Assembly: GCA_046757725.1 (NCBI GenBank)
Contig: JBHHYU010000008.1
Span: forward strand, 230 to 64,229
Direction of reading: 5' to 3'
DNA length: 64,000 bases
Origin: Candidatus Binatia bacterium
GTDB taxonomy: Bacteria > Desulfobacterota > Binatia > UBA9968
The position numbers and the translations under genes were made by a program. The notes under the pieces are model-generated. The model was given only the letters and a program-made list of their open reading frames with translations. It ran no database searches and had not been told where the DNA came from. Within the stretch, counting starts at the first letter, position 1. The number at the start of each line of letters is the position of its first letter. This document shows positions 4,717-25,294 of the stretch, in pieces.

Positions 4717-4717
4717 A

Positions 4718-5233
4718 ATGGCTGCCTTATCGGACGGCCTTGTCGGGAGTTTTGCCCATCTTGATAGCCTGCTTACGGCCATCGAAGGATTGCGTCAAGC
4801 CGGTTATCACGAGATACAAGCCCTCTCTCCCGTCCCTCACCATGCCATCGACAAGGCACTGGAGAAACCGACTAGTCCGGTGCGTGTCTTTACGCTGATC
4901 GGTTGTCTTCTTGGCGCCATCACCGGCTTTGTGCTGACCATAGCCACTTCACTCCATTACCCGCTCATCACCGGCGGCAAACCGATTGTCTCGATCCCTC
5001 CCTTCCTCATCATCGTCTTCGAACTCACGATTCTGTTCGGCGGGCTCCTGACTCTCGGGGGCATGCTTTTGAATGCTCGTCTACCACAGGTACAGATCGT
5101 TCCAGCCTATAATCCTCGCTTCTCAGAGGATCGGTTCGGTTTGTGGGTCCGCTGCGAGACCAACAATTATAACGCCGTAACCGAACTGCTCCGAAACGCA
5201 GGTGCGGAGGAGATACGCCATGCCAAGGATTAG
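4718..5233 (+). CDS. actD: ActD-like small membrane subunit of ACIII (DUF3341-like)
   Basis: 171 aa with two central TM helices. There is a perfect AAGGAGG ribosome-binding site 8 nt upstream, and the position after actC matches the ACIII gene order. Confidence 0.6.
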   Translation: MAALSDGLVGSFAHLDSLLTAIEGLRQAGYHEIQALSPVPHHAIDKALEKPTSPVRVFTLIGCLLGAITGFVLTIATSLHYPLITGGKPIVSIPPFLIIVFELTILFGGLLTLGGMLLNARLPQVQIVPAYNPRFSEDRFGLWVRCETNNYNAVTELLRNAGAEEIRHAKD

Positions 5234-5269
5234 CTACATCGTCAAGAACGACGCCAAGGGAAGGCGCTG

Positions 5270-6550: not shown

Positions 6551-7130
6551 AAATTTGCCGTTAAGGCTGCCTACCATGGTAGGGAAAACGATAAGGCAGC
6601 TGCAAAGCTGTTCTCGGCGTCGGAAGCGATTTGCTCTCAGAAGGGCCGGATTGTGCTTGGCTACCTTAGCGGGCCTGTTGTGGCTCGGTGTCAGTATGGC
6701 CTACGGATGGCCCTGGAGCACTGACATGGAGAAACAGCCTTCAGTCAAGCCACAGGAGGCACCCCTAGCGCCACCGCCCAACTCGATTCCAAGGAAAGGC
6801 AGAGAGCCGCGCATGAATCGGATTGAGGCGGGAAAGCGGTTGCGCAATCCCATAGACCCAACGGCCATGTCAGTTGAACACGGCAAGAAGCTTTTTCAGG
6901 TCTACTGCGCCCTTTGTCACGGACCCGATGCGAAGGGCGGGGGCCCTGTGGCCAAAAAATTTGTCCCACCTCCCGACCTGACTTTGGAAATATTCCGCAA
7001 GCGAACCGACGGCTTTATCTACGCAACCATTCGAGACGGAGGACCCCTCATGCCCAGCCAAGCGGAGGCCGTTTCTCCAAAAGAAAGATGGGACATCGTC
7101 AACTACCTCCGCACCTTGCAGGAGAAGTAA
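6510..7130 (+). CDS. actE: Monohaem membrane-anchored cytochrome c (ActE-like)
   Basis: Single CALCHG motif and an N-terminal TM anchor preceded by an Arg-rich stretch. The true start is probably an internal ATG (6543 or 6576), because the 6510 start overlaps actF by 40 bp. Confidence 0.55.
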   Translation: MKQMLLKKSHPMFRNLPLRLPTMVGKTIRQLQSCSRRRKRFALRRAGLCLATLAGLLWLGVSMAYGWPWSTDMEKQPSVKPQEAPLAPPPNSIPRKGREPRMNRIEAGKRLRNPIDPTAMSVEHGKKLFQVYCALCHGPDAKGGGPVAKKFVPPPDLTLEIFRKRTDGFIYATIRDGGPLMPSQAEAVSPKERWDIVNYLRTLQEK

Positions 7131-7425
7131 CGTACGTGAGTGCCTTAGAGAGCTTCTCCCTCCCGTTGCAAATCGAATAGTCTTTCGCAAATTTGGGAAA
7201 AGAGAGATTTTTAATTCTCAACCTCCGGAAGCATCACCCTAATCATCACCAGTTTATCCCAAGTTTTAACGTTCAGGTCAGTGGTATGTTTCTTGCGAAC
7301 CCCTCTTTCTAACTACCCGAGCAAAGGACCTCGCGGCATGGTGACCGAAACGTGTTTGGCGGCTAAATTGGATCGTACCGACAGGCACCGGTATCAGAGT
7401 GCAAACCAATGGTGGAGGCTTCTTC

Positions 7426-8154
7426 ATGCGAACAGTAAGATGGTTATTTATGCTCCTCTCGCTCTTTTTTTGGGGGTGGACGTTTTTCCCGAGCGCTGAG
7501 GCTATTGCCTTTGAACGGGACTCCCGATGGAACAGCTCTTACTCAAAGGGGCGCTCACTGTATCTTATTCAGTGCGCAGCCTGCCATGGCAAAAACGGTG
7601 AGGGCGGCGTCAGTCTCCCTCTTAACTTGCAAAGCTTTCTTGCCGTAGCCCCTCCGGGCTACATCCGTCGTTCGATTTTCTACGGGCGACTACCGCGGCC
7701 AATGGCCGCCTTCGGGACTATTCTCAAAAAGGAAGAGATCGAGTCCATCGCCGCCTATGTACGTTCCTGGCAGCTCCAGGATTACAAGGGCATTGACATG
7801 AATCGTGTGGCCGGTTCCGTATCCAACGGCAAGTTTCTCTTTGATGGAATCTGTTCCGGGTGTCACGGGAGGGACGGTGTCGGCGGCCCCCAAGTGGGTG
7901 GCGGTCACGTCACCAGCTCCATTGCCGGATATACCGGGCCCTCACTTAATAACCAGGGCTTTCTGAAGTCGGCCACGGACGGATATATCAAAGCGACCCT
8001 GATGTATGGCCGCGTTGGTACCCCCATGGGTTCCTACCTGAAGGGCAAGCAAGGTTTTGTCGAGCTGAGCGAGGAAGAGATCAGCGACATCGTGGCATAC
8101 ATTCGCTCCTGGGAAAAGCGAGACGCCGGGCCACGAGATCCCTGGAGAGAATGA
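7426..8154 (+). CDS. Dihaem class-I c-type cytochrome (periplasmic, Sec signal)
   Basis: Two CxxCH motifs (CAACHG, CSGCHG) and an N-terminal signal peptide (MRTVRWLFMLLSLFFWGWTFFPSAEA). A GGTGGAGG ribosome-binding site precedes the ATG at 7426. Confidence 0.7.
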   Translation: MRTVRWLFMLLSLFFWGWTFFPSAEAIAFERDSRWNSSYSKGRSLYLIQCAACHGKNGEGGVSLPLNLQSFLAVAPPGYIRRSIFYGRLPRPMAAFGTILKKEEIESIAAYVRSWQLQDYKGIDMNRVAGSVSNGKFLFDGICSGCHGRDGVGGPQVGGGHVTSSIAGYTGPSLNNQGFLKSATDGYIKATLMYGRVGTPMGSYLKGKQGFVELSEEEISDIVAYIRSWEKRDAGPRDPWRE

Positions 8155-8176
8155 ACAATCTTGAGGAGGAATAAAA

Positions 8177-10819: not shown

Positions 10820-10840
10820 AGAGCGAGCTGGAGGATAGCT

Positions 10841-11437
10841 GTGAGATTGAAATGGAACCGGCGGCGTTTCCTGCGAGCTGCCGGAGGCGCACTGGGAACG
10901 GCAATACTCTGGGTTCTAGCGGGTGCGCGGGTATCCGCGCGGAGTGGGTCGAACTTCGCCAACCTGCTACGTCCTCCGGGGGCGTTGCCCGAACCTGAGT
11001 TTCTCCAGCGCTGCATCCGCTGCACCCGGTGCGCGGGCGTGTGTCCGAACACCGCCATTCGGATGGCCGGTTTCAGCTCTGGGCTCCACAATCTCAATAC
11101 CCCTTACATCATGCCCCGGGTGCAGGCCTGTATGCTCTGCATGAAATGCACCGAAGTCTGCCCGACGGGCGCGCTGCATCAAATCCCGGCGGATAACAAA
11201 CAGATCACTACCCGTGTCAAGATGGGGCGCGCCTATGTGGATAAGTCCATGTGTTATTCCTATCAAAAACGCACCTGCGGGGTCTGTATTCGCGCCTGTC
11301 CGTTCCCCGGTCTCGCCATGAAGACGGGGCTATACGAGCAGCCCATCGTGACCGACTCCTGTGTCGGATGCGGCCTGTGCGAGCGTGCCTGCATCCACAT
11401 TCCGCAGGCGATTCGAATCGTTCGGGAGGAGGCCTGA
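10841..11437 (+). CDS. NapG-like periplasmic ferredoxin (4x 4Fe-4S, Tat signal)
   Basis: GTG start with a GGAGGA ribosome-binding site. The RRRFLRAAGGALG motif is a Tat signal. Four CxxCxxCxxxCP-type cluster motifs are present. Confidence 0.65.
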   Translation: MRLKWNRRRFLRAAGGALGTAILWVLAGARVSARSGSNFANLLRPPGALPEPEFLQRCIRCTRCAGVCPNTAIRMAGFSSGLHNLNTPYIMPRVQACMLCMKCTEVCPTGALHQIPADNKQITTRVKMGRAYVDKSMCYSYQKRTCGVCIRACPFPGLAMKTGLYEQPIVTDSCVGCGLCERACIHIPQAIRIVREEA

Positions 11438-11441
11438 AGTC

Positions 11442-12968
11442 ATGACTCGATGGCCCCGCCGCATGGTGCAAATCTCGGCACTCGCCTTCCTTATCGCGGT
11501 GCCTGCGCTGAACTACGGCGGTGTCCTCTACCAACAGTACGGAAAAAACGGTTACCACAAGATTGCCCTCATGGGGACACTTTTCGAACGCGGGTTATAC
11601 AATCTCTTCTCAGCGATGGCGCGGGTGCTACCCAATCCGGCGGGAAACTCAACGAGTCTTGTGGGGGGATACGGCTCTTTTTCGATATTCGGTATCTCTT
11701 TCCTCGATCCTGTGATTGCCCTCGAGACGGTGCTTCGCGTGCAGGCAGTCTGGACCGCTATCCTCGTAGGGGCTGCGCTGCCACTGCTGCTGGCCGTGCT
11801 GTTGGGGCGGATCTTCTGCGGATGGCTTTGTCCCGTGAACACGGTGCTCGAAGGTTTCGACCTGCTTCGAAAGCGCGCCCTGCCGCGCATTGGCTTCCGG
11901 CCGCTGGACGTGGCAGTGCCGCGCTGGTTGAAGTGGGTTCTCTTGTTCGCCGGTGTGACCGTAGCCGTCCTGGCGGATCTCACCATCTGGACGCACTTAC
12001 TCCCCCATGTCCAGATCGGCCGGGACGTTTTTTCTCTTATCGTGTTCGGTACGACCACGGTGGGCGCTCCTCTCCTCCTAGGAATCATCCTGGCAGAGAT
12101 TCTCTTTTCCCGCAGGGTATGGTGCCGGTCGCTTTGCCCCACCGGGGCGCTACTCGGCCTGGCGGCCCTGGTAGCTCCACTACGAGTGCGTCGGGCGAAG
12201 GAACCGTGCCTTAAAGGCTGTGCGGCCTGTGCCCAGGCCTGCCCCATGGCACTGAATCCCGCAAAGCCGTTCCCGGTAGCTGAATGCTACAACTGCGGGC
12301 TCTGTGTCGCCACTTGCCCGGCTCAGTTGCTCACTCTCGGCTTCCCGCGGCCGCGCTGGGTCGTTGTTCAAGAGATATTTCCCATGTTTAAGCGCATGAC
12401 GCTTTTTGTCCTCACTGCTACCCTGCTTCTCTCCTCACCGGCGGCGGCCCACCACATGCGCGGCCAGCCACACTACGGGTATGCCGAGAACTATCCACAG
12501 GTCCCTACGAAGGAAACCCGCGCGCACATCGGCAACTTTGATATCACGATCGTCAGTTATTTCTTCGAAGGCCTGCGGCGTGACCTCTCGGACACCCCAC
12601 ACGACGTCCAGTTCTATGTAGGTCTTAGTGACAGCCGGACCCATCAGAGCTACATGGGCCCGCTTTCCATTGAGTTGTGGCGTGGGGGGCAGCGCATCGC
12701 CACCTTCAACCACACGCACCCCTTCGAAGAAGCAGTCTATCGCATTCGTCAGGCAGTTCCCGGACCGGGGACATATGAGATTCGCCTCGCAGGGGGTGGG
12801 ATCAGCGGAGTCGTCACCGTGGATGTGGAGGGAGAATCAGCTCAGTTGACGCCTTTCATCCTGACGGGGGCTGCCGCCCTGCTCGGCCTTCTTATTTTCT
12901 TAAACCGCCGACGGAGGCAGAGAAGGAGAGTCTATGTGGCATCTAATGCGCAAAACCATGTCCAATAG
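11442..12968 (+). CDS. NapH/MauN/CcoG-like polytopic membrane ferredoxin with an in-frame ~200-aa C-terminal extension (His-rich periplasmic domain plus terminal TM anchor)
   Basis: TM helices, a GWLCP motif and two C-terminal 4Fe-4S motifs (CLKGCAACAQACP, CYNCGLCVATCP). The frame then continues without a stop through a hydrophobic segment (MFKRMTLFVLTATLLLSSPAAAHHMRGQPHYGY...), a ~150-aa soluble domain and a final TM helix followed by an RRRRQRRR stretch. The ATG at 11442 has a GGGAGGAGG ribosome-binding site. Confidence 0.55.
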   Translation: MTRWPRRMVQISALAFLIAVPALNYGGVLYQQYGKNGYHKIALMGTLFERGLYNLFSAMARVLPNPAGNSTSLVGGYGSFSIFGISFLDPVIALETVLRVQAVWTAILVGAALPLLLAVLLGRIFCGWLCPVNTVLEGFDLLRKRALPRIGFRPLDVAVPRWLKWVLLFAGVTVAVLADLTIWTHLLPHVQIGRDVFSLIVFGTTTVGAPLLLGIILAEILFSRRVWCRSLCPTGALLGLAALVAPLRVRRAKEPCLKGCAACAQACPMALNPAKPFPVAECYNCGLCVATCPAQLLTLGFPRPRWVVVQEIFPMFKRMTLFVLTATLLLSSPAAAHHMRGQPHYGYAENYPQVPTKETRAHIGNFDITIVSYFFEGLRRDLSDTPHDVQFYVGLSDSRTHQSYMGPLSIELWRGGQRIATFNHTHPFEEAVYRIRQAVPGPGTYEIRLAGGGISGVVTVDVEGESAQLTPFILTGAAALLGLLIFLNRRRRQRRRVYVASNAQNHVQ

Positions 12969-13018
12969 GGTCCGGCGCGTCGTCTTCTCTGATAGGGAAT
13001 CGTCACGGGGGTGAATAG

Positions 13019-13615
13019 ATGACCGAGAAGCCTATCGACCGTAAGACCTTTCTACGTAAGGCCCCGTTGGCAATCGCGCGTGCCTTTGCCCAGGCCGTGC
13101 GCGAGGCGCATCCAACCATCCCAAAATCTTCTCTGCCTCTCCTTCGGCCGCCCGGGGGGGCCGCCAAAGAGACTTTCCTCGACTTGTGCTGCGGGACCGG
13201 TGCGTGCGCAGATGTCTGCCCGGCCAAAGCCATCCAGCTCCGCCCGCGTGAGGATACACCTTCGCTTCGCGCCCCGGTTATCATCCCCAACGAGGCTGCC
13301 TGCGTTGTCTGCGACGAACTCGCTTGCATGTCCGCTTGCCCCAGCGGCGCACTTGTGCCGGTCCCCCGAGAGAAGATCCGCATCGGCTTTGCCCGTGTCA
13401 ACACCGAGACATGCGTGGCATGGACGGGGACGGACCCGGGGTGCAACTATTGCGTTGCCCGTTGTCCACTCGGAACACCGGCCATCTCGATAGATAAGAA
13501 AGCAGACGGAAAAGGGCCGGTCGTTAAGGACGCCTGCATCGGCTGCGGTGTGTGCGAATACTACTGCCCGACCCAACCGCCCGCAATCCGCGTGCTTGCG
13601 AGGGAGCAGGGTTGA
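13019..13615 (+). CDS. Second NapG/NapF-like poly-ferredoxin (4x 4Fe-4S)
   Basis: Four Cys-cluster motifs. The N-terminus (DRKTFLRKAPLAIARAFAQAV) resembles a Tat signal but carries RK instead of RR. A ribosome-binding site lies upstream. Confidence 0.55.
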   Translation: MTEKPIDRKTFLRKAPLAIARAFAQAVREAHPTIPKSSLPLLRPPGGAAKETFLDLCCGTGACADVCPAKAIQLRPREDTPSLRAPVIIPNEAACVVCDELACMSACPSGALVPVPREKIRIGFARVNTETCVAWTGTDPGCNYCVARCPLGTPAISIDKKADGKGPVVKDACIGCGVCEYYCPTQPPAIRVLAREQG

Positions 13616-13755: not shown

Positions 13756-14229
13756 ATGAGTGAAATGAAGTTAGGGCGGGAAAGTTCATACGGAATCGAA
13801 GGCCTGTTGACTCTGGCTGCAAGGCCGCGGGGCACTGCGATGCTCTTAAGCGACATTGCCGCCGATAGAGGGATCCCCCAGAGTTTTCTCGCTAAAATCT
13901 TTCAGAAACTCACCAGATACGGAATCGTCCATTCTTTCCGTGGGGTCGTCCGCGGTTACGCCCTCGCTCGGCACCCAAAAGAGATCAAGGTTAAAGAGAT
14001 CCTATTGGCGATCGAAGGGCCTGATCTTTTCGAGCGTTGTATCTTCTGGAGCGATCGCTGTGCCGATCGCAACCCCTGTCCTCTGCATGACCAGTGGAAG
14101 CAATTAAAACATCAGTTCATCGGAGGATTGATGGAACGGACAACCCTGGCCGACCTGATAAAAAAAAGACCAGCCAGGCCTACGACGGCCAAGCGTCACT
14201 TTGTTCAGGACGCAAGGCGGGGAAGTTAA
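13756..14229 (+). CDS. Rrf2-family transcriptional regulator (NsrR/IscR-like, putative Fe-S cluster ligands)
   Basis: The N-terminal wHTH is typical of Rrf2. The motif CIFWSDRCADRNPCP gives C-x6-C-x5-C spacing as in NsrR/IscR. The gene sits between the Nap-like and NXR-like modules. Confidence 0.7.
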   Translation: MSEMKLGRESSYGIEGLLTLAARPRGTAMLLSDIAADRGIPQSFLAKIFQKLTRYGIVHSFRGVVRGYALARHPKEIKVKEILLAIEGPDLFERCIFWSDRCADRNPCPLHDQWKQLKHQFIGGLMERTTLADLIKKRPARPTTAKRHFVQDARRGS

Positions 14230-14395: not shown

Positions 14396-15976
14396 ATGAG
14401 ACGGTGTTTTTTGTTGATTGCCGGTGTGTTCCTCCTGTTACGTGCAGCAGGAGTCGGGACCTCCGCCGAATTAAAATCTCCTCCCCCTTCACCTAAACTC
14501 CTTGCCCTCGGAAAGCAGACTTACAACAAACATTGTGTCGCGTGCCATGGAGTGAATGGACGAGGAAATGGAGAAGCGGCCTACCTTCTCTATCCCAAAC
14601 CCCGTAATTTTGTGGCCGCAAGGTACCGCCTAGTGTCGACCTGGGAACGCATCCCGACCGACCAGGATCTCTTCAACACGATTTCGCGCGGCATGCCGGG
14701 ATCAGCCATGCCCTCGTGGGGGCATCTCTCGTCAAAGCAGCGCTGGGGGCTTGTTCATTACGTAAAGTCATTTGCTGAAAGGCCACTAACCACCAAGCCT
14801 CAGAGGAGACCAGGGGCTGATGGCAGCGATGGTCAAGGGGTCATCTATGTTGGGCCGGAGCCCTCTTACGATGCCACTGCCAAGGCGCGTGCTAAAGAGC
14901 TTTTCCGAGAGGCGTGTGCCTCCTGTCACGGTGCAACGGCAAAAGGGGATGGCGTGAAAAAGCAGTGGGACGTGGAAGGCTTTCCCACGCGCCCACGTGA
15001 TCTCACAGCCGGCGTTTTCAAGGGAAGTCCGGACCCCTTGCAACTGTACCGCCGCATCATCGCAGGCATTCCGGGTAGCCCCATGCCGATGAACAGCTGG
15101 GCTTATGGTAATGACGCCTGGCACCTCGTTCACTTTATCCGCTCCCTCTCAAGTGATGAGCAACGAGAGCGCGTGGAGATGAAAAAATTTCAGATCGTGG
15201 CCACGCGCGTAAAGAAGGTACCGGACAATCCCGACTCCGGCACTTGGCGTCTCGCCCAACCGGTAAACCTTCATCTGATGCCGCTCTGGTGGCGCTCCCA
15301 GCGGCCGGAAGAATTGACCGTGCGGGCACTCTACGACAGGAAGGAATTGGCTTTACTTTTAGTCTGGGCCGATCAGACGCATGACCATACAGCGATCCGG
15401 CCACAGGATTTCCGGGATGCTGCAGCGGTAGAGTTCTCGCTTACCAGGGATCCTCCTTTTTTCGCCATGGGCGAGAAGGGGAAATCCGTCAATATCTGGA
15501 TGTGGAAATCGGAGCGGCAGGCAGACCTTGAACCTGCCTTTCAGGACCTTGACAAGATCTACCCTAACCTCGGCATCGACTCTTACCCTAATCTATTACG
15601 CTCGCCGGTGGAACAGCCTTCGCGTAACGCGCTCACGCTCAAGTCAGACAAGACCTTCGTGACCGGATGGGGGGCGGGGAATATTGTTTCTGACCCCCAG
15701 CGCAAGAGCCCAGCCGAGGATCTCACGGCGCAGGGATTCGGCACGCTGCGAGCACGACCGCGGATCGACCAGAAGGTCAATGCGAAGGGCATTTATGGTG
15801 TCGGTGCCTACCGGGTCATCTTCCGGCGGGCGTTAAAGCCCAGCGGTAAGCACGCGCCGAAGTTTCAACCCGGCACGGCTGTGCCGGTGGCCTTTGCGGT
15901 CTGGAACGGCAGCGCCGGAGACCGTGACGGAAAAAAATCTGTGACCATCTGGCAGGAGCTGAAGATCGCAAAATGA
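14396..15976 (+). CDS. NxrC-like gamma subunit: Sec-signal, N-terminal dihaem cytochrome c fused to a C-terminal EB_dh-like (type-II DMSO-reductase haem-b subunit) domain
   Basis: Strong GGGAGGAGG ribosome-binding site and a signal peptide. Two cbb3/c552-type haem motifs (CVACHG, CASCHG) are followed by ...WNHLVHFIRSL. The C-terminal ~260 aa ends in VAFAVWNGSAGDRDGKKSVTIWQEL, which recalls from memory the gamma subunits of EbdC/SerC/NxrC enzymes. The gene lies immediately upstream of the alpha subunit. Confidence 0.55.
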   Translation: MRRCFLLIAGVFLLLRAAGVGTSAELKSPPPSPKLLALGKQTYNKHCVACHGVNGRGNGEAAYLLYPKPRNFVAARYRLVSTWERIPTDQDLFNTISRGMPGSAMPSWGHLSSKQRWGLVHYVKSFAERPLTTKPQRRPGADGSDGQGVIYVGPEPSYDATAKARAKELFREACASCHGATAKGDGVKKQWDVEGFPTRPRDLTAGVFKGSPDPLQLYRRIIAGIPGSPMPMNSWAYGNDAWHLVHFIRSLSSDEQRERVEMKKFQIVATRVKKVPDNPDSGTWRLAQPVNLHLMPLWWRSQRPEELTVRALYDRKELALLLVWADQTHDHTAIRPQDFRDAAAVEFSLTRDPPFFAMGEKGKSVNIWMWKSERQADLEPAFQDLDKIYPNLGIDSYPNLLRSPVEQPSRNALTLKSDKTFVTGWGAGNIVSDPQRKSPAEDLTAQGFGTLRARPRIDQKVNAKGIYGVGAYRVIFRRALKPSGKHAPKFQPGTAVPVAFAVWNGSAGDRDGKKSVTIWQELKIAK

Positions 15977-16058
15977 AGAGCGCAGCAGAAATAGAATTCA
16001 CAAAGCGGAATGGGGCAGGGGGTCTTGATGCTGACCAGTGGATTCCAGAAGGAGAGTG

Positions 16059-19000
16059 ATGACCATGAACGATGAAAAACTACAAGATCGGAATCGCTTG
16101 ACGCGCCGGGATTTCCTGCGCTGGATGGGTATCGGGAGCGGCACAGCAGTACTCAGCACAGGGTTGCCGTTGAGGCTTCTGGCTGCTGCGCGCCCCGGCG
16201 AGAATCCCCTCGCTGGTTCGGTGGACCGTAACTGGGAAAAAATATATCGCAATCAGTACAAGTATGATCGTGTTTTCGACTGGGTCTGCTCCCCCAATGA
16301 CACTCATGCCTGTCGAGTACGGGCCTATGTCCGAAATGAGATCGTGACGAGACTCGGATCAACCTACGACTACCAGACTTACGCCGACCTTTACGGTAAC
16401 AAAGCCACCCCGAACTGGAACCCACGGCAGTGCGCCAAGGGCTATACTTTCCATCGGGTGATCTACGGACCCTACCGGCTCAGGCATCCCATCGTCCGCA
16501 AAGGCTGGAAGGCCTGGGCCGACGCCGGCTTCCCTGAGCTGAGACCGGAAAACAAAGCGAAGTACATGTTCGACAACCGCGGCCAGGACGAGTTTGTTCA
16601 GATCTCCTGGGAGGATGCGCTTCAAAGCATCGCCAAGGCCATCGTCGCCATTTCGACACGTTACAGCGGTGAGGGGGGAAAGAGGCGGTTGCTGGCCCAG
16701 GGCTACCAGCCGGAAATGGTTGAGGCTGCCGCGGGTGCCGGCACTCGTTGCGTCAAGATGCGTGGAGGCATGGGCCTTCTAGGGGTCATCGGCAAATACG
16801 GGTTGTACCGGCTCAACAATTCGCTTGCGCTCCTCGATGCGAAGATTCGAGGGGTAGGTCCAGAAAAAGCACTAGCTGGCCGCAACTGGTCTAATTATAC
16901 CTGGCACGGAGATCAGGCGCCCGGCCACCCATGGGTGCACGGACTGCAAACATCGGACTGCGATTTCAACGACTTGCGCTTCACCAAGCTCATTATCTTG
17001 GACGGAAAGAATCTCGTAGAAAATAAGCTACCCGATGCCCACTGGTTCATCGAGTGCATGGAGCGTGGGGGAAAAATTGTCGTTATCGCCCCGGAATACG
17101 GACCTCCTGCAACCAAGGCTGATTACTGGATTCCCATTAGGCCCGAGACCGACACGGCACTCTGGCTTGGTGTTACTAAACTGATTTTCGAAAACAAGTG
17201 GTACGATGAGACATTCGTCAAACGCCATACCGATTTCCCCCTCCTCGTCCGTACCGATACGTTGAGGCGTCTGCGGGCACATGAGATCTTCCCGAACTAT
17301 TCCTCCAACCTCTCCCCTGATGGGCCTTCGATGAAGATCCAAGGTCTTACACGGGAGCAACACTCCAAACTCGGTGATTTTGTAATCTGGGACCAGAAAA
17401 ACAATGGCCCAGCCGCGCTCACGCGAGATGATGTGGGAGAGACGATGGCTAAAAAGAGGCTGGACCCAACCCTGGAAGGAACGTTCAAGGTCAAGCTTGT
17501 CGACGGTAAAGAGGTGGAGGTCGCCACGCTTTGGACGCTCTATCGGACCCATCTTCGGGACTATGACCTTGACACGGTATCAGAGATCACGCATGCACCC
17601 AAGAACCTGATCGAACAGCTTGCCAAGGACATCGGAGCGATAAAACCAGTTGCGATCCACCAGGGCGAGGGGATCAATCACTGGTTCCACGGTACCGAGA
17701 TGAACCGTGCAGCCTACCTGCCACTGATGCTAACCGGCAACATTGGCAGGCCGGGAGCCGGGGGCCATACATGGGCAGGAAATTACAAAGCAGGTCTTTT
17801 TCAGGGTTCCCCATGGACCGGGCCGGGCTTTAAGGGGTGGGTAGCCGAGGACCCATTCCACCCGAATTTGGACCCCAAGGCCCATGGAAAAAACGTAAAG
17901 ATCCATGGCTACACTAAGGGCGAGGAGCCAGCCTACTGGAACCATGGGGACCGGGCATTGATTCTCAACACACCGAAGTTCGGCCGTAAGAATTTTACCG
18001 GCGAGACCCACATGCCAACACCGACCAAAGCCATTATCTTTAACAACGTTAACCTGATCAATAATGCCAAGTGGGCCTACGGGATGATTAAGAACGTCAA
18101 CCCCAACATCGAGATGATCGTCTCGCTGGATATTCAGATGACTGCCTCTATTGAGTATGCAGACATTGCGCTGCCAGCGAATAGCTGGATGGAGTTTGAA
18201 GGGTTGGAGATGACGGCGAGCTGCTCAAATCCCTTCTTGCAGATCTGGAAGGGAGGTATTTCACCGGTGTTTGATAGCAGGGATGACCTGACGATTCTGG
18301 CTGGCATCGCCGGCGAGCTTGCCGAGATTACGGGAGAGAGCCGCTTTCGGGATCATTTTAAGTTCGCTGCGCCCGAACAGCGCGGGATCTATATCCAGCG
18401 CCTGCTCGACACCTGCACGACCACGGCAGGGTATAAACTCAAGGACATTATGGCCGGCAAGTATGGACCCCCGGGGGGCAGCCTGTTGAACTTCCGCACC
18501 TACCCTCGCATCCCCTTCTATGAGCAGATCCATGATTCAGAGCCGTTCCACACGGACACGGGGAGACTCCACGCCTATGCTGATATCCCTGAGGCAATCG
18601 AGTACGGGGAAAACTTCATCGTGCATCGGGAGGGACCAGAGGCTACGCCCTACTTGCCCAACGTCATTGTCAGTTCAAACCCTCACATTCGCCCGGAGGA
18701 TTACGGGATCCCTCTAACCGCGGAACACTGGGATGAACGCACCGTCCGCAACGTCAAGCTTCCATGGAGCAGAGTCAAAGAGACGAAAAATTTCCTGTGG
18801 GAGAAAGGCTTCCATTTCTACTGCCTCACTCCGAAGACACGCCACCGGGTCCACAGTGGTTGGTCAAACGTCGATTGGCACATGCTCTATGACTCAAACT
18901 TCGGCGACCCTTACCGTCTTGATAAGCGTGCGCCAACGGTGGGAGAGCACCAGCTCCATATCAATCCTCAGGCAGCACGGAAATTAGGGATCAACGATGG

Positions 19001-19538
19001 CGATTACGTTTACGTGGATGCCAACCCGGCCGACCGCCCCTACCTCGGCGCAACGCCCAGCGATCCTTTCTACAAGGTATCGCGCTGCATGCTGCGAGTG
19101 AAATACAACCATGCTTATCCCTATAACATCGTCATGATGAAGCACGCCCCGTTCATCGCCACAGAAAAGAGCGTCAAGGCACACGAAACACGCCCCGACG
19201 GCCGCGCCCTATCGGAAAATACCGGCTACCAGGCCAATCTCCGCTACGGCTCCCAGCAATCCGTCACCCGTAATTGGCACATGCCAATGCACCAAACGGA
19301 CAACCTTTTTCACAAGTCAAAGGTCTTTATGGGGTTTATCTTTGGCGGTGAAGCCGACAACCACGCGATCAACACCGTACCGAAGGAAACCCTGGTGCGC
19401 GTCACGAAGGCTGAGGACGGAGGCCTTGGCGCCAAAGGCATCTGGAAACCGGCCACCACCGGCTACACGCCGGACAACGAGAACGACTTCATGAAACGAT
19501 ATCTGGCAGGGGAGCTGGTCAAGGTGCCGGGCAAATAG
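16059..19538 (+). CDS. nxrA: Tat-exported NarG-type molybdopterin oxidoreductase alpha subunit, periplasmic NXR/NarG-like (NxrA candidate, ~1160 aa)
   Basis: Twin-arginine motif TRRDFLRWMGIGSG. The N-terminal Cys/His FS0-type motif is VCSPNDTHACRV. The size matches periplasmic NxrA (~1150 aa) rather than type-II enzymes (~920-980 aa) or cytoplasmic NarG (~1250 aa). A gamma-like subunit lies upstream and a beta subunit downstream. The alternative ATG at 16065 has better ribosome-binding-site spacing. Confidence 0.7.
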   Translation: MTMNDEKLQDRNRLTRRDFLRWMGIGSGTAVLSTGLPLRLLAAARPGENPLAGSVDRNWEKIYRNQYKYDRVFDWVCSPNDTHACRVRAYVRNEIVTRLGSTYDYQTYADLYGNKATPNWNPRQCAKGYTFHRVIYGPYRLRHPIVRKGWKAWADAGFPELRPENKAKYMFDNRGQDEFVQISWEDALQSIAKAIVAISTRYSGEGGKRRLLAQGYQPEMVEAAAGAGTRCVKMRGGMGLLGVIGKYGLYRLNNSLALLDAKIRGVGPEKALAGRNWSNYTWHGDQAPGHPWVHGLQTSDCDFNDLRFTKLIILDGKNLVENKLPDAHWFIECMERGGKIVVIAPEYGPPATKADYWIPIRPETDTALWLGVTKLIFENKWYDETFVKRHTDFPLLVRTDTLRRLRAHEIFPNYSSNLSPDGPSMKIQGLTREQHSKLGDFVIWDQKNNGPAALTRDDVGETMAKKRLDPTLEGTFKVKLVDGKEVEVATLWTLYRTHLRDYDLDTVSEITHAPKNLIEQLAKDIGAIKPVAIHQGEGINHWFHGTEMNRAAYLPLMLTGNIGRPGAGGHTWAGNYKAGLFQGSPWTGPGFKGWVAEDPFHPNLDPKAHGKNVKIHGYTKGEEPAYWNHGDRALILNTPKFGRKNFTGETHMPTPTKAIIFNNVNLINNAKWAYGMIKNVNPNIEMIVSLDIQMTASIEYADIALPANSWMEFEGLEMTASCSNPFLQIWKGGISPVFDSRDDLTILAGIAGELAEITGESRFRDHFKFAAPEQRGIYIQRLLDTCTTTAGYKLKDIMAGKYGPPGGSLLNFRTYPRIPFYEQIHDSEPFHTDTGRLHAYADIPEAIEYGENFIVHREGPEATPYLPNVIVSSNPHIRPEDYGIPLTAEHWDERTVRNVKLPWSRVKETKNFLWEKGFHFYCLTPKTRHRVHSGWSNVDWHMLYDSNFGDPYRLDKRAPTVGEHQLHINPQAARKLGINDGDYVYVDANPADRPYLGATPSDPFYKVSRCMLRVKYNHAYPYNIVMMKHAPFIATEKSVKAHETRPDGRALSENTGYQANLRYGSQQSVTRNWHMPMHQTDNLFHKSKVFMGFIFGGEADNHAINTVPKETLVRVTKAEDGGLGAKGIWKPATTGYTPDNENDFMKRYLAGELVKVPGK

Positions 19539-19572: not shown

Positions 19573-19869
19573 ATGCCTTATGACGATCCTGATCCCACGG
19601 ATCCCAATATCTTGGTGGGGGTAGCCCTGCCGGCCGATGCGGAAGTAATATGCGAGATGGCCTACGTCTTTGCCGAAGAATTTATCCGAATGGGGTACGA
19701 TCGAGAGCGAGTGCTGCAGGTTTTCAAGAACCCGTTTTACACCGGTCCGCACAATGCTTACCGGGACCTGGGCGAAGAGAAAGTCCAGTCCATTATCGAG
19801 GAGTGTATCCACGCATGGGGCGGTGTCTGTTTTGTTGATTGCGACGACGGAAAGGAGACAGAACCATGA
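19573..19869 (+). CDS. Small acidic Cys-containing protein of unknown function, translationally coupled to nxrB
   Basis: 98 aa with a GAGGAG ribosome-binding site upstream. Its stop overlaps the nxrB start (ATGA). Cys residues include a C-terminal CFVDCDD. It occupies the entire nxrA-nxrB intergenic space. Confidence 0.5.
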   Translation: MPYDDPDPTDPNILVGVALPADAEVICEMAYVFAEEFIRMGYDRERVLQVFKNPFYTGPHNAYRDLGEEKVQSIIEECIHAWGGVCFVDCDDGKETEP

Positions 19870-21131
19870 GTCAGGTTTACAACTGGCAACTCGGCCGCAA
19901 GATGGATTATCCCTTTCCGGCCGCATATCCGAAGCGGCAGTTCGCCTTTGTCTTTAATATCAACCGCTGCATCGCCTGCCAGACCTGTACCATGGCCTGC
20001 AAATCAACCTGGACCTTCAGCAAGGGCCAGGAACATATGTGGTGGGCCAACGTCGAGACCAAACCTTATGGTGGTTATCCCCAGTTTTGGGACATGAAGA
20101 TCCTGCGGCTTCTCGAGGAAGCCAACCCCGGAGGGCAGCAATGGTCGGGAACCCCTTCCGGGAACTCCAAAAACCCCTACGGTCGTTTTGACGGACAAAC
20201 TATTTTTGAGGCTAAGAAAGCGCTTCAGCCCGGGAGCTCACGGGTCCTAGGTTACCTTCCCACCGACGAGGAGTGGAACTTTCCCAACATCTATGAGGAC
20301 AATCCGCTCGGCAAGAAAGGGGTGCCCAACCAATTCGACACAACCGGAGTGGAGCTGCCCGTACACAAGACCTGGTTCTTTTATCTGGCGCGTATTTGCA
20401 ACCACTGTACCTACCCCGGGTGTCTGGCAGCCTGCCCGCGCAAGGCCATTTACAAACGCCCTGAGGACGGCATCGTCCTCATCGACCAGAAGGAGTGCCG
20501 TGGCTACCGTAAGTGCGTGGAGGCCTGCCCTTACAAAAAGGCAATGTATCGGGGCAATACCCGAGTGACCGAGAAATGCATTGCCTGCTACCCACGAGTC
20601 GAGGGTAAAGACCCCGAGAGTGGTGGCCAGCCTATGGAAACGCGTTGCATGGCGGCGTGCGTGGGCCAGATGCGCATGCAGGGCCTAGTCAAAATGAACC
20701 GGGACGGCACCTGGACCGAAGACCGACACAATCCGATCTACTACCTCGTGCATGTGGCCAAAGTAGCCCTACCGCTTTATCCCGAACTCGGCACTTTACC
20801 CAATGGTTACTATATTCCTCCCCGCTGGGTACCGCGACCTTATCTTCGGCAGATGTTCGGTCCAGGCGTTGACAACGCGATCGAGCGTTATATTAACCCG
20901 GACCGAGAACTCCTTGCGGTCCTGCAGCTTTACCGGCGCTCCAACCGAATCATCTTCCGCTATGAAATTAAGAAGGGGCCAAAGATCTATGAGGCCACGC
21001 ACCGCGGCCGGAAAGTGACGCTGTACAACGACACCATTATCGCTTATGGCCGAAACAACAAGGAGATCTTCCGAACCACTGTTGAGGAGCCGGTTTATGT
21101 ACGGTCGAAAAAACATGCCAACTCGATATGA
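19866..21131 (+). CDS. nxrB: NarH/NxrB-type Fe-S beta subunit (4 clusters, NxrB-like insertion), 421 aa
   Basis: The N-terminus MSQVYNWQLGRKMDYPF...FAFVFNINRCIACQTCTMACKSTW resembles periplasmic NxrB. Four Cys clusters are present, including the inserted CIACYPRVEGKDPESGGQPMETRCMAAC. A GGAAAGGAGA ribosome-binding site lies upstream. Confidence 0.75.
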   Translation: MSQVYNWQLGRKMDYPFPAAYPKRQFAFVFNINRCIACQTCTMACKSTWTFSKGQEHMWWANVETKPYGGYPQFWDMKILRLLEEANPGGQQWSGTPSGNSKNPYGRFDGQTIFEAKKALQPGSSRVLGYLPTDEEWNFPNIYEDNPLGKKGVPNQFDTTGVELPVHKTWFFYLARICNHCTYPGCLAACPRKAIYKRPEDGIVLIDQKECRGYRKCVEACPYKKAMYRGNTRVTEKCIACYPRVEGKDPESGGQPMETRCMAACVGQMRMQGLVKMNRDGTWTEDRHNPIYYLVHVAKVALPLYPELGTLPNGYYIPPRWVPRPYLRQMFGPGVDNAIERYINPDRELLAVLQLYRRSNRIIFRYEIKKGPKIYEATHRGRKVTLYNDTIIAYGRNNKEIFRTTVEEPVYVRSKKHANSI

Positions 21132-21217: not shown

Positions 21218-22024
21218 GTGATGAAACCTGAAAATCTGAGAAAAGAACAAGAGGTCAGGGAGGGCGATCTAGCCCTCTGCCGAGCCACTCTGTATAGCGC
21301 GCTGGCGCTCGGCTTCCGACCGCCCACAGAGGAAACATTAACTCGCCTCGCCTCTACGGAGGGTGCAACGGTTTTGGCCGGCGCAGCGGCGCTGCTGGAC
21401 GGACAGCACCAGGTAACCCTCACCTCCGCCGCAGAGGATCTCAGCAAAATAAAAAAAACCTCCGTATCAGAGCTCGAAGTCTCATTCTGGCGCCTATTCG
21501 GCCATACCGTACGCGGCCAGGTACCCCTATATGAAACCGAGTACGGTGTTGATTCTCTTTTCCAGCAACCGCAGGAATTGGCAGACCTATTAGGTTTTTA
21601 CCACGCATTCGGTCTCGCCTTAGACCCGAAAGAACACGAACGGGCAGATCATGTTAGTTGCGAACTCGAGTTTCTCTCCTTTCTTGCCCTCAAAGAGGTC
21701 TACGGCTTGGAGCAACGGGACGACCCTATGCTGGAAGAGACACGTAAGGCCGCGCGCACCTTCTTACGGGATCATCTCGGTCGGTTCGCGCCTGCCTTCA
21801 CCAGGAAGCTTTCTCGTGAAGACCGGGAGGGCTTTTACGGGGCTCTAGGTGAGCTCTGCGCGAGGTTTGTGATCGAAGATTGTACCCGACTCAGCGTGTC
21901 GGTCGGCCCAGAGAGTTTAGGCTTGCGTCCAGCTGCTGAAGATCAAGTGCCGATGGCATGTGACAATGGAGCGGAGTGCACTGAGTTGTCCGGCGCTTGC
22001 GAACAGGAAATAATGGAAAAATGA
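21218..22024 (+). CDS. TorD/NarJ/DmsD-family redox enzyme maturation chaperone (delta subunit)
   Basis: Contains the family motif E-H-E-R-A-D-H-V-S-C-E-L-E-F-L-S-F-L (DHxxxELEFLxxL), typical of TorD/NarJ. The gene lies downstream of the beta subunit. Confidence 0.7.
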   Translation: MMKPENLRKEQEVREGDLALCRATLYSALALGFRPPTEETLTRLASTEGATVLAGAAALLDGQHQVTLTSAAEDLSKIKKTSVSELEVSFWRLFGHTVRGQVPLYETEYGVDSLFQQPQELADLLGFYHAFGLALDPKEHERADHVSCELEFLSFLALKEVYGLEQRDDPMLEETRKAARTFLRDHLGRFAPAFTRKLSREDREGFYGALGELCARFVIEDCTRLSVSVGPESLGLRPAAEDQVPMACDNGAECTELSGACEQEIMEK

Positions 22025-22977
22025 GCCCTGGGGTTCTTCTCAGTTACGACTCCAGTTTAATGGAAGAGGCTGTCTTCCTCGCTTTGCAGGGACATCCGGC
22101 CGCCGTGGAATTTTTCGGTGAGCGCAACAAACTCTACGAAATCAGTGATTCGGAGGAACAAGAGCGTGCCTTTCGGGATTTCCATTGCGCCTGGTTTACC
22201 CGTTTAGAATTCGCCGACCAGATCGAAAAGGCAGTCAACGAACACCCTTTTCTTACTTCCAGTGTCAGGCGCTGTGTCGTAGCTTGCGTCTCAAGAAAGC
22301 AAGATGAAGGAGCTGAACTCTTTGTCGGTTCCCAAGCAGAAAACAGCGAAAAAGAGCGTCGTACGGTGCGAATCCTATTGAGACCTGAATCATTTCTTGA
22401 CTCCCTTACTCTACTAAGACTGCTTCGCCATGAACTTTTGCACATCACGGACATGCTCAGCACTAGCTTCGGCTATGACCCGATCCTACCGAAGGCACCA
22501 GGCGGGCCCGCCTATGACCAATTACTACAAGACCGCTACCGTGTCCTGTGGGATGCAACGATAGATGGTCGAATGGTGCGGCGCGGCTGGGCGCCCGATT
22601 CGATCCGTGTAGAGCGCCTTTGTGAATTCCGCCATGCCTTTCCCATGTTCAGGGAAGCGGCCTCTCAGCTGTTTGATCGCTTTTTCGACCAAGAGCCACA
22701 TACGCATGGCGAATTGGTTACATTCGCCTGCAACCCCATGGCCGCCGTAGATGACTCACCAATGACGCGCAGCCCCGGAAGCCGGTGCCCTCTTTGCGGT
22801 TTTCCAACGTATGCGTTCGAGCCGGCGCCTGAGCACCTGCCTCTAGAGGTCCTCTCTCAGATCACTCAAGACTTTCCGCGGTGGCGCCCAACTCAGGGTC
22901 TTTGCACCCAGTGTGCGGATCTTTACCGGGCACGTTGGGCCTCGTCTCGTGCAGAGAGTCCTTTTCCGGGAACATAG
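22021..22977 (+). CDS. Hypothetical protein with HExxH motif and C-terminal CxxC...CxxC zinc-ribbon, translationally coupled to the chaperone gene
   Basis: The ATGA overlap with the chaperone gene's stop indicates translational coupling. The motif LLRHELLHITD carries HExxH. The C-terminus holds CPLCGFPTYAF...CTQCADLY. I recognise no known family. Confidence 0.45.
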   Translation: MSPGVLLSYDSSLMEEAVFLALQGHPAAVEFFGERNKLYEISDSEEQERAFRDFHCAWFTRLEFADQIEKAVNEHPFLTSSVRRCVVACVSRKQDEGAELFVGSQAENSEKERRTVRILLRPESFLDSLTLLRLLRHELLHITDMLSTSFGYDPILPKAPGGPAYDQLLQDRYRVLWDATIDGRMVRRGWAPDSIRVERLCEFRHAFPMFREAASQLFDRFFDQEPHTHGELVTFACNPMAAVDDSPMTRSPGSRCPLCGFPTYAFEPAPEHLPLEVLSQITQDFPRWRPTQGLCTQCADLYRARWASSRAESPFPGT

Positions 22978-23082: not shown

Positions 23083-24612
23083 GTGATGGCTAAGGTCTAT
23101 GTCGCCGGCGTGGGAATGACAAAATTCGGGAAGAGCCCTCAATCGCTGGTTGAGCTTTTTTGTGAAGCTGCTTCCCGCGCCCTCTCAAACTCATCGTTCC
23201 AGGAAATGGATGCCTTGTACATTGGCGCCATGAACCCCGAACAGTTTACGGGAGAGAGCAATATCGCGTCGCATATCGTCGATGCCTTAGGTGGAACCGG
23301 TTTGCCCGCACTCAGGATAGAAACGGCCTCCTCCGCCGGGGCAGCGGCACTGCTCGCCGCATACCAGGCAGTGGCCTCGGGGTATTACCGGCGCGTTCTG
23401 GTGCTGGCTGGAGAAAAAATGACCCATCTCAGCACTAGCGCAACCACTCGGATTCTAGCTGAGGTCATCGACAGGCAAGAGCGACAGTGCGGGGCAACTA
23501 TGCCGGCCCTAGCAGCCATGATCACGGAAAAGTACCGAAAGAGATATCGTCTTTCGGCATCACGTCTGGAGCATATGCTTTGTCGCGTAGCGATGAAAAA
23601 TCACCGGAACGGCTCACACAACCCCCATGCGCAGTTTCAAAAACCTCTTTCGGAAAAGGCATACTTTTCGAGCAAGATGATCTCCACGCCACTCAGGCTT
23701 TATGATTGTGCGCCCATTACCGACGGCGCAGCAGCTGTGATCTTGACCTCGGAACATACGGACCTAGTTATCGCCGGCATAGGGCAGAGCACGGGGCCTG
23801 TCAGCCTTAGAGAGCGAGATTCTTTCACTTCCTTTCCCGCTACCCAGATTGCTGCTGCGAGGGCTTATGAGATGGCTGGTGTCTCCCCTAAGGACATCGA
23901 TTTTGCGGAAGTGCATGACGCCTTTACTCCATTTGAAATCATCGGTACGGAAGACCTAGGATTTTTTCCTCCTGGAAAAGGTGGTGAGGCTGTGGAGGCG
24001 GGAAAAACTGCCTTGGAAGGGTCACTGCCCGTCAACCCTTCGGGAGGTCTCAAATCCCGCGGGCATCCCGTGGGAGCAAGCGGTTTGGCACAGATCGTGG
24101 ATAACGCAGACCGACTAAGGGGAAACTCTGAGGCAAAGTCGCGACGCGAGGCCAAGAGGGCCTTGGCTCAAAGTATCGGGGGCCTAGCCGCCAACAACTT
24201 TGTGACCATCCTCGAGCGCAGTGACAGCTCGACTCAAGTCCAAAACCTATGGCCTCACCGGTACCCTCCCTCTTCCCTTCGGCGTCTTTCCCAACCTAAG
24301 TCGGATCACAAGGCGCCCGGCGATGAGGGTCGCATTGAAACGTTTACAGTTCTTCATGTCACCCCTGATGGCTTCCTTCCTCCTCTGGCACTTGCTCTCA
24401 TTCGTGACAAGCTCGGACGCCTCCATATGGCCCGGGGAGAGGATATCTCCCTTCTAAAAATCGGAAGAGAAGTGTACCTACGTCAAGGGGTGGATGGTTA
24501 TTATTTTACGGTAAAGAGCCACCTGCGTCGAGTCATGGATTCCATAGAAAAAGTTTTAGGGCGGCTTCCTCCATTGCCCCGAAGCAAAAAAACGGCTCAC
24601 GGCAAAAAGTAA
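23083..24612 (+). CDS. Thiolase-like (SCP-x/Ltp2-type) domain fused to a C-terminal DUF35 OB-fold domain; nucleophilic Cys apparently replaced by Ser
   Basis: The N-terminal KVYVAGVGMTKFGK and the GHPVGASG motif mark a thiolase fold. Where thiolases carry CxSG, this protein has ETASSAG. The C-terminal ~120 aa are OB-fold/DUF35-like (GRIETFTVLHV...). Confidence 0.55.
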   Translation: MMAKVYVAGVGMTKFGKSPQSLVELFCEAASRALSNSSFQEMDALYIGAMNPEQFTGESNIASHIVDALGGTGLPALRIETASSAGAAALLAAYQAVASGYYRRVLVLAGEKMTHLSTSATTRILAEVIDRQERQCGATMPALAAMITEKYRKRYRLSASRLEHMLCRVAMKNHRNGSHNPHAQFQKPLSEKAYFSSKMISTPLRLYDCAPITDGAAAVILTSEHTDLVIAGIGQSTGPVSLRERDSFTSFPATQIAAARAYEMAGVSPKDIDFAEVHDAFTPFEIIGTEDLGFFPPGKGGEAVEAGKTALEGSLPVNPSGGLKSRGHPVGASGLAQIVDNADRLRGNSEAKSRREAKRALAQSIGGLAANNFVTILERSDSSTQVQNLWPHRYPPSSLRRLSQPKSDHKAPGDEGRIETFTVLHVTPDGFLPPLALALIRDKLGRLHMARGEDISLLKIGREVYLRQGVDGYYFTVKSHLRRVMDSIEKVLGRLPPLPRSKKTAHGKK

Positions 24613-24616
24613 TTCT

Positions 24617-25294
24617 ATGATTAAGAGACACCCGACCCGCGTAGAGAAGGATTTCAGATCCCTGACGAGACTCCTGACTGAGAAGCTCAAGGACGCAATC
24701 GTGAAAGGGAAATTCTCCCCAGGGGAACGGCTTTCCGAGGAGAAACTCGCGTCGATGCTAAAAGTGAGCCGGGTACCACTGCGGGAGACCTTGCGTCGCC
24801 TGGAAGCTGAAGGTTATATCACCTTTCTCTTCAACAACGAAGTAACGGTCAGCAAACCGCCCGTGGAAGACATTCAAGACTACTACTCCATTGCCAGTGT
24901 CCTCGAAGGATTAGCGGCAAGGCTCGCTGTGGAGCAGGCCCGTCCTGAGGAGATTTCCCGCCTGAAGGAACTACACCAACTCCTGCGGCAGGCTTATCAA
25001 GCAAGGGACCTGGAACGGTACTTTGAAGCCAACAGCAACTTCCATCGCTTTATCGCTGAGATAGCAAGGAACGAGCATCTTTACCGACTCATAAATCAGA
25101 TGAGACACGAAATCCAAAAAGCCAGGATTCTTGCTCTGCAGATACCGCAGCGCCTTGATTATTCAATGCGGGAACACGACCAGATCCTCGACGCCTTCCT
25201 TAAAAAAAATCCTGAGTTAGCAGAAGTAACCGTCGTCAAACATCTGGATAACCAGAAGGACGCAATAAAACAGATGTTAGAAGCGGAAGCCTAG
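24617..25294 (+). CDS. GntR-family transcriptional regulator (HTH + FCD domain)
   Basis: The N-terminal motif SERKLASMLKVSRVPLRETLRRLEAEGYI is a GntR HTH. The C-terminal domain is alpha-helical and FCD-like. Confidence 0.7.
   Translation: MIKRHPTRVEKDFRSLTRLLTEKLKDAIVKGKFSPGERLSEEKLASMLKVSRVPLRETLRRLEAEGYITFLFNNEVTVSKPPVEDIQDYYSIASVLEGLAARLAVEQARPEEISRLKELHQLLRQAYQARDLERYFEANSNFHRFIAEIARNEHLYRLINQMRHEIQKARILALQIPQRLDYSMREHDQILDAFLKKNPELAEVTVVKHLDNQKDAIKQMLEAEA

Follow-up and report, generated by a model that had tools for sequence, protein, structure and literature searches.

An unnamed protein family encoded beside the TorD/NarJ-like chaperone of nitrite oxidoreductase-like operons and its possible role in molybdoenzyme maturation

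We analysed a 64,000-nucleotide stretch of DNA from Candidatus Binatia bacterium (GenBank assembly GCA_046757725.1, contig JBHHYU010000008.1, positions 230 to 64,229 of the forward strand; hereafter the window, in whose numbering all positions are given), with a focus on the gene at 22021..22977 (+), which is referred to here as X. This gene closes a six-gene operon that encodes a relative of nitrite oxidoreductase (NXR) and is read from one strand in the order gamma, alpha, small open reading frame (ORF), beta, delta and X, where delta denotes the TorD/NarJ-like gene just upstream of X. The operon genes and the features within X are the following:

14396..15976 (+): gamma, with two cytochrome c domains (PF00034 twice) and an EB_dh haem-b domain (PF09459), matching TIGR03477; its N-terminal hydrophobic signal is of the general secretory (Sec) type.
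16038..19538 (+): alpha, NxrA-like catalytic subunit of 1166 residues with a molybdenum-bis(pyranopterin guanine dinucleotide) (Mo-bisPGD) cofactor, matching TIGR03479; N-terminal twin-arginine translocation (Tat) motif TRRDFLR.
19573..19869 (+): small ORF of 98 residues between alpha and beta, with no domain match in Pfam; its stop overlaps the beta ATG (ATGA, 19866-19869).
19866..21131 (+): beta, NxrB-like iron-sulphur (Fe-S) subunit starting at ATG 19866; TIGR03478 (2e-73) and Fer4_11.
21218..22024 (+): delta, TorD/NarJ-like redox-enzyme maturation chaperone; PF02613 Nitrate_red_del (8e-20) and TIGR03482 (8e-30), the latter named 'DMSO reductase family type II enzyme chaperone' (DMSO, dimethyl sulfoxide).
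22021..22024 (+): ATGA stop/start overlap of delta and X, with the X ATG at 22021-22023 and the delta TGA at 22022-22024.
22021..22977 (+): X, an ORF without internal stops coding for 318 residues plus a stop codon; predicted cytoplasmic, of a family without a name.
22270..22458 (+): predicted zincin-like core of X, residues 84-146, with three beta-strands followed by a long motif-bearing helix (AlphaFold2).
22429..22452 (+): HELLHITD, residues 137-144 of X, with the conserved core E138-x2-H141-x2-D144 and a variable H137.
22534..22572 (+): conserved helix segment R172-Y173-x3-W177-D178-x5-R184 of X, inside predicted helix 162-187.
22705..22707 (+): H229 of X, 99% conserved in 323 relatives, at the start of predicted helix 229-237; candidate metal- or ligand-binding residue.
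22786..22914 (+): Cys4 module of X, C256-x2-C259 and C295-x2-C298 with 35 residues between the two pairs; all four Cys 99% conserved.

The association of X with this operon was surveyed from both ends. The window's six operon proteins were searched by tblastn against 84 loci that had been found through X, and the order gamma-alpha-small ORF-beta-delta-X was seen wherever the contig was long enough, in agreement with public gene calls. In nearly all of these loci, which came from more than 10 phyla, delta lay directly upstream of X, and members only 28-30% identical to the window protein occupied the same operon. For the reverse test, metagenomes of the Joint Genome Institute (JGI) were searched with beta, 80 loci were returned and those with at least 2.2 kb of sequence downstream of beta were counted. 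Delta followed by X was present in 35/35 such loci, and the start of X was visible in 12/13 further loci with 1.1-2.2 kb downstream. A co-occurrence with TorD-like genes in NXR clusters, proposed as a check in an earlier note made from the letters of the window alone, was thereby confirmed in both directions, and the 35/35 synteny led us to reject X as an unrelated hitch-hiker gene. Overall, comparative genomics could hardly tie the X family more firmly to the widespread NXR-like operon, and this near-universal association with delta and the structural genes means that a role tied to the molybdoenzyme is well founded.

The coupling of X to delta was also found to extend beyond the window. The ATGA overlap, which had been reported in the earlier note, can be read directly from the sequence, and delta and X share the same 4-nt stop/start overlap in 70 of 127 loci, with about 32 more at spacings of -1 to +30 nt, indicating that translational coupling is a conserved property and not an accident of the window. 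X appears to be co-transcribed with delta and translationally coupled to it. In one Methylomirabilota metagenome-assembled genome (MAG; L043:2-1513) the two genes form one uninterrupted in-frame delta-X ORF that lacks about 20 C-terminal residues of delta and about 12 N-terminal residues of X, which is consistent with a physical partnership of the two proteins. Two further fusion candidates were examined and rejected. The delta and X genes of locus L059 are separated by a stop codon, leaving L043 as the only uninterrupted case, and an apparent fusion of X to a multihaem cytochrome c with five CxxCH motifs (L054:3651-5915) has a signal-peptide-like junction and probably arose through loss of a stop codon or through misassembly.

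Median identities to the window proteins were 84% for alpha, 80% for beta, 70% for gamma, 57-60% for the small ORF, 53-55% for delta and 45-46% for X. X thus diverges fast like delta and far faster than the structural subunits, which is the pattern of an accessory factor rather than of a subunit, and the possibility that X is an extra subunit of the enzyme was rejected on this fast evolution together with the lack of an export signal. Across loci L001-L166, alpha and beta remained 77-90% identical among MAGs of many phyla (Binatia, Acidobacteriota, Methylomirabilota, Planctomycetota, Gemmatimonadota and others) while delta and X fell to 35-60% identity; this pattern suggests that the operon is under very strong constraint, has recently spread horizontally, or both.

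Alpha of the window scored 1830 bits across its whole length against NxrA of Kuenenia stuttgartiensis (PDB 7b04_B), in comparison to 190 bits for perchlorate reductase and 115 bits for Escherichia coli NarG, and the earlier assignment of the adjoining enzyme to NXR holds at the level of homology. The alignment with mature Kuenenia NxrA runs from end to end, and alpha has no C-terminal extension. Judging from the predicted signals, alpha would be exported by Tat, with beta presumably hitch-hiking, and gamma by Sec. A scan for promoters and terminators gave nothing above shuffle expectation. The gamma subunit resembles the 'alternative NxrC' proteins of Nitrospina and Kuenenia and is unlike canonical NxrC; in some relatives three cytochrome c domains instead of two are fused to the EB_dh haem-b domain, and gamma of this multi-cytochrome-c and EB_dh type marks the operon clade that carries X. 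The small ORF was detected in 58/84 X-anchored loci (mostly those with enough DNA) at 40-71% identity and is called as a gene of 101-121 residues in public annotations. It is a second uncharacterised universal component of the operon, and Kuenenia likewise has unannotated genes, kustd1701/1702, between nxrA and nxrB.

The deposited protein identical to X is a hypothetical protein of a Candidatus Binatia MAG. X has no hydrophobic segment, transmembrane segment or signal peptide by sequence prediction and no match in Pfam or NCBIfam. When 45 diverse members of the family were scanned against Pfam at E<=5, no recurring family emerged; 3/45 gave weak matches to the rubredoxin-like RUBY_RBDX (best E 0.059), a single Peptidase_M91 match at E 0.12 was at chance level, and no other peptidase family appeared. 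A PDB sequence search returned only noise for the single X sequence and 0 matches for the X family profile. This agrees with the first reading of the protein, in which no family had been recognised. A word-indexed search identified 439 relatives, every one of them 'hypothetical' or unnamed, and a HMMER profile search of 1.84 billion cluster representatives identified 1,022 X clusters (50% identity) at E<=1e-3, 574 of them at E<=1e-30. Relatives were present in 437 genomes in a scan of one genome per GTDB species. Details were taken from the best 80 of these 437 loci, all from MAGs or single-amplified genomes, which included Binatia, Methylomirabilota/Rokubacteria, Acidobacteriota, Gemmatimonadota, Latescibacterota, Planctomycetota, KSB1, Eisenbacteria and others; neither these best 80 nor the matches listed in the other searches included a named cultured nitrite oxidiser or anammox bacterium. 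Some longer members (P0127, P0189, P0167 and others) have extra parts without a Pfam domain. In summary, X represents a real, large and unnamed family without a described function.

Two motifs had drawn attention to X in the earlier note, namely HELLH (residues 137-141, nt 22429-22443) within LLRHELLHITD, read as a possible metalloprotease-type zinc site, and a C-terminal pair of CxxC motifs. Both motifs are present, with minor corrections: the ORF is as described, with a length of 318 residues since the 319 given counted the stop codon, and the two CxxC motifs are separated by 35 residues and not 32. HExxH arose in 1.9% and at least two CxxC in 1.3% of 100,000 shuffles of the X protein, and the motifs alone are therefore weak evidence, leaving conservation as the real test.

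The first His of the motif, H137, looked invariant in 30 close relatives of X. This impression was lost with wider sampling, as the position was H in 22 and R in 17 of 45 diverse cluster representatives. Across 323 non-identical relatives, H137 was 75% conserved, with R in 17% and S, A, P, G, Y, F, E, D, L, T or C in others, and H141 was 94% conserved, with Y or F in about 4%. When the sequences were clustered at 55% identity (153 clusters), 79 clusters had only H at position 137, 69 had no H and 5 were mixed. The nearest neighbour of a sequence with R137 was equally often an H137 as an R137 sequence, and the H137 variants sit inside the same NXR-like operon. The proposed HExxH zincin site, which the earlier note had made dependent on conservation of the motif among orthologues, consequently fails at its first His. 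With H137 replaced in 25% of sequences, a canonical zincin protease site is not the conserved feature of the family.

Other residues were far better maintained in the same 323 relatives. E138, D144 and W177 were 100% conserved, and H229, R172, Y173, R184, Y39, E15, F51 and the four Cys were 99% conserved. The conserved signature of X is E-x2-H-x2-D with a distant His, an R-Y...W...R helix and Cys4, and not HExxH. The family thus lacks the constant pair of His of zincins and retains the catalytic-type Glu (E138), its invariant D144 and H229 being candidate third metal ligands, and it has the four conserved Cys in two CxxC knuckles that are typical of a Cys4 finger.

An AlphaFold2 model of X, built from a 30-sequence alignment, had a mean predicted local distance difference test (pLDDT) score of 88.3 and a predicted template modelling (pTM) score of 0.73. 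It begins with a helical region (residues 11-81), followed by strands 84-89, 97-102 and 114-120 and the long helix 128-146 with the motif. A helical bundle (162-242) then holds the RY..W..R helix and H229 and is followed by a low-confidence linker. The second CxxC starts helix 296-311, in a treble-clef or rubredoxin-knuckle geometry, such that the earlier label of zinc ribbon does not apply in its classical two-hairpin sense. No match at E<=1e-3 was obtained with Foldseek against the PDB and BFVD. Weak PDB matches were to 4l7a, a putative Zn peptidase (E 0.16), and to leishmanolysin, bothropasin, ecarin and fragilysin (E 1-4). In BFVD the best E was 3e-3, and the weak matches, mostly zincin-type proteases, included SprT-like proteins (probability 0.84-0.95, E 0.06-0.08), an M34-family endopeptidase, IrrE-like proteins and a 'Zn-dependent protease'. 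The structure prediction suggested in the earlier note therefore gave a confident fold with only weak zincin-type matches. The model lends moderate support to a zincin-derived core with a Zn module behind it, which is reminiscent of SprT-like proteins and does not imply membership among them.

These results can be interpreted as X being a cytoplasmic, operon-specific factor needed to mature or assemble the periplasmic, Tat-exported NXR-like molybdoenzyme together with the delta chaperone, to which we assign a probability of roughly one half. X shares with maturation factors its operon linkage with structural genes and a chaperone, and its predicted location is the cytoplasm, in contrast to the exported enzyme. 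The dispensability of the first His implies that the function shared by all members is not classical zincin proteolysis; a zincin-derived domain in X is plausible, whereas universal proteolysis by the classical mechanism is not. Of the roles offered in the earlier note (maturation, proteolytic processing or metal insertion), maturation of the molybdoenzyme was strengthened as a putative role by the synteny and the gene overlap, and the protease reading was weakened by the variability of H137.

In the mechanism we propose, X would join delta in the cytoplasm and act as a co-chaperone or proofreading factor on the alpha/beta precursor prior to Tat export. The zincin-derived N-terminal domain would present E138, H141, D144 and H229, flanked by R172, Y173, W177 and R184, as an invariant cluster, and this polar cluster in the zincin-like groove may be the binding site for a metal ion, for a peptide segment from the NxrA/NxrB precursor, or for both. 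The Cys4 module would hold a structural Zn (or Fe) and mediate protein contacts. X is most probably an operon-specific maturation factor of a molybdoenzyme, which is a known kind of protein, and its combination of fold and motifs is new for this role. More tentatively, and with somewhat less than even odds, X and the small ORF may constitute an undescribed obligatory maturation module of a widespread periplasmic NXR-like clade, in which X would represent a new class of co-chaperone (degenerate zincin fold plus Cys4 finger) acting with the TorD-like protein before Tat export and the absence of which would help to explain difficult heterologous production.

Several observations weigh against a maturation role. 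The function proposed for X is deduced through guilt by association, and no homology of X to any known maturation factor was found. Two loci depart from the usual arrangement, as in L035 X follows nuoFGHI without delta, and in L074 delta and X have multihaem cytochromes as neighbours, while neither alpha nor beta is present within 8 kb. The lone delta-X fusion in L043 could be an assembly or deletion artefact.

It is unlikely, in our estimation, that X is instead a genuine metallopeptidase acting on some component of the NXR-like enzyme, either to process or to degrade it. Such a peptidase might remove an extension after cofactor insertion, as HybD/HycI do for [NiFe] hydrogenases, or clear mis-assembled precursor, and its metal would be held by H137/H141 and a third ligand or by a non-canonical H141/D144/H229 site with E138 as general base. 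The strong conservation of E138 (100%), H141 (94%) and D144 and H229 (99-100%) would suit this role, the predicted order of beta-sheet and motif helix is that of zincins, and the only structural matches, although weak, are to proteases (4l7a, leishmanolysin, snake-venom metalloproteinases, fragilysin, SprT-like, M34 and IrrE). However, all Foldseek E-values were at least 3e-3, the scan of 45 members at E<=5 revealed no MEROPS-type Pfam family apart from the chance-level M91 match, H141 itself is replaced by Y or F in a few per cent of sequences, and H137 has been lost through many independent changes within the same operon. An extension to be removed is also missing from the C-terminus of alpha, given its end-to-end alignment with mature Kuenenia NxrA.

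Closer to the maturation factor favoured above, though quite unlikely in its specific form, is a metallochaperone or a protein that handles cofactors, by analogy with FdhE or HypA. X would then deliver or check a metal or Fe-S centre in one of the two subunits alpha and beta, such as the unusual 3Cys/1Asp FS0 cluster or the four that beta carries. It would do so through a Cys4 site binding Fe in a rubredoxin-like manner together with the His/Asp/Glu site, with which the invariant Cys4 and E/H/D/H residues are compatible, as are the RUBY_RBDX matches in three members; in its architecture, with a helical or alpha/beta N-terminal domain ahead of a C-terminal knuckle module of two CxxC, in its predicted cytoplasmic location and in its gene context with a Tat-exported periplasmic molybdoenzyme, X parallels E. 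coli FdhE. Against this, X has no sequence or fold match to FdhE, HypA or an Fe-S carrier in the Pfam and PDB profile searches or among the Foldseek PDB matches listed, and the proposal overlaps with the favoured reading, from which it differs just in what is bound. A regulator, in which a Zn finger at the C-terminus of X would bind nucleic acid or a sigma/anti-sigma partner to tune the operon and the N-terminal domain would possibly sense metal or redox state, is very improbable, since the operon-end position of X, its Cys4 finger and the frequent proximity of Rrf2, Crp/Fnr, GntR and sigma-54 activator genes are set against the lack of any DNA-binding domain in domain scans of X and 45 members, a tight coupling to the chaperone that implies stoichiometric production and is unusual for a regulator, and adjoining regulators that differ between loci and so provide no conserved partner. 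The remaining probability belongs to roles other than maturation factor, peptidase, metallochaperone or regulator.

Nitrite oxidoreductase makes almost all nitrate on Earth, and close homologues of the periplasmic form are very common in uncultured phyla of soil, sediment and groundwater with an unclear nitrogen metabolism. To our knowledge, only TorD/NarJ-like chaperones are currently recognised in the maturation of type II DMSO-reductase-family enzymes. Should X prove to be needed for assembly, it would add a new component to this maturation pathway, a practical candidate for co-expression in the recombinant production of NXR-like enzymes and a specific marker gene for this operon type in metagenomes. 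If X is dispensable, the finding shrinks to one more conserved hypothetical protein. The family also illustrates that an HExxH motif in a lone sequence is no evidence of protease activity.

The region directly upstream of the operon in the window (466-13615, +) is densely occupied by respiratory genes, followed by a regulator gene:

From 466 (+): Alternative-Complex-III-like set, with a fused molybdopterin/Fe-S ActB-like protein (466-3387) and NrfD-like membrane proteins.
7399-8154 (+): dihaem cytochrome c.
8177-10819 (+): NapA-like periplasmic nitrate reductase with a Tat signal.
10841-13615 (+): NapG/NapH-like ferredoxins.
13756-14229: Rrf2 regulator.

The presence of Nap genes adjoining the NXR-like enzyme raises the question of the direction in which this enzyme runs. 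On the 3' side of X (23083-25294, +) are a thiolase-like gene with an OB-fold tail and a GntR/FCD regulator gene. The same pair follows X in L017, L018, L024, L033 and L047, which are several Binatia-type or related MAGs, and is absent from other phyla; it probably reflects lineage-specific synteny unrelated to the NXR-like operon. In one lineage (L003:11010-12167 and L004:1303-2460) the gene after X encodes MobB together with an FmdE domain and a DksA/TraR-type zinc finger. MobB has a connection to molybdopterin-guanine-dinucleotide synthesis, and this gene is another hint that molybdenum-cofactor and maturation functions gather at the 3' end of the operon.

Among known systems, the best PDB structural matches of X, although not significant, were metzincins and 4l7a (BACCAC_01431). 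The motif in X is HExxHxxD in comparison to HExxHxxGxxH/D in metzincins, where D144 takes the position of the metzincin Gly; X provides no evidence of a Met-turn, and its first His is not conserved. The minimal zincins SprT-like, Spartan and Wss1 share with X the order of their parts, namely a zincin-type core, a motif on a long helix and then a Cys4 Zn module, and SprT-like proteins had the highest match probabilities in BFVD. Their resemblance is limited, as SprT-like matches were weak (template modelling score of 0.46 or less relative to the target) with no Pfam SprT-like match, and SprT-type enzymes need both His and a third His close by whereas X tolerates the loss of the first. X is also larger, by about 80 residues at the N-terminus and about 100 residues of helix, and its context is respiratory and not DNA repair.

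FdhE (PF04216, PDB 2FIY, about 310 residues), an accessory protein of the periplasmic formate dehydrogenases of E. coli, is similar to X in size, in its cytoplasmic location and in having an N-terminal domain with one or more CxxC-pair knuckle modules, and both are linked to a Tat-exported molybdoenzyme as a required or associated factor. FdhE differs from X in having four CxxC (two rubredoxin-like centres) in place of two and in lacking (H)ExxHxxD. No Pfam match to FdhE was found in 45 X members at E<=5 and none was among the best 50 Foldseek PDB matches listed, so that the likeness between X and FdhE is an analogy and not homology.

Genes of undescribed function beside NXR have been reported previously. 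'One putative zinc finger' protein is among the genes conserved with NXR and a TorD-like chaperone in Kuenenia, Nitrospira and Nitrospina (Lucker et al. 2013, PMC3578206); like X, as far as its description allows comparison, it has an undescribed function and a predicted Zn finger and is kept beside the NXR subunits and the TorD-like chaperone. 'Several proteins of unknown function' are located beside nxrC and TorD in Nitrospirales (PMC12342949), and the Kuenenia NXR cluster contains the unannotated genes kustd1699 and kustd1701 (PMC6423088). Going by these descriptions, the zinc finger protein and the unannotated Kuenenia and Nitrospirales genes are candidates for relatives of X.

The systems closest in context are the chaperones themselves. 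Proteins of the TorD/NarJ family act in the cytoplasm on apo-enzymes before Tat export. This pre-Tat action in the cytoplasm has also been applied to NXR (PMC3578206, PMC6606698). Like X, the TorD/NarJ/DmsD proteins are cytoplasmic and fast-evolving, their genes share an operon with a Tat-exported Mo-bisPGD enzyme, and they are not expected in the mature enzyme. Unlike X they are all-helical, whereas X has no PF02613/TIGR03482 match and combines an alpha/beta zincin-like core with Cys4. In comparison to these chaperones X would be an additional factor and no substitute, co-translated with one of them.

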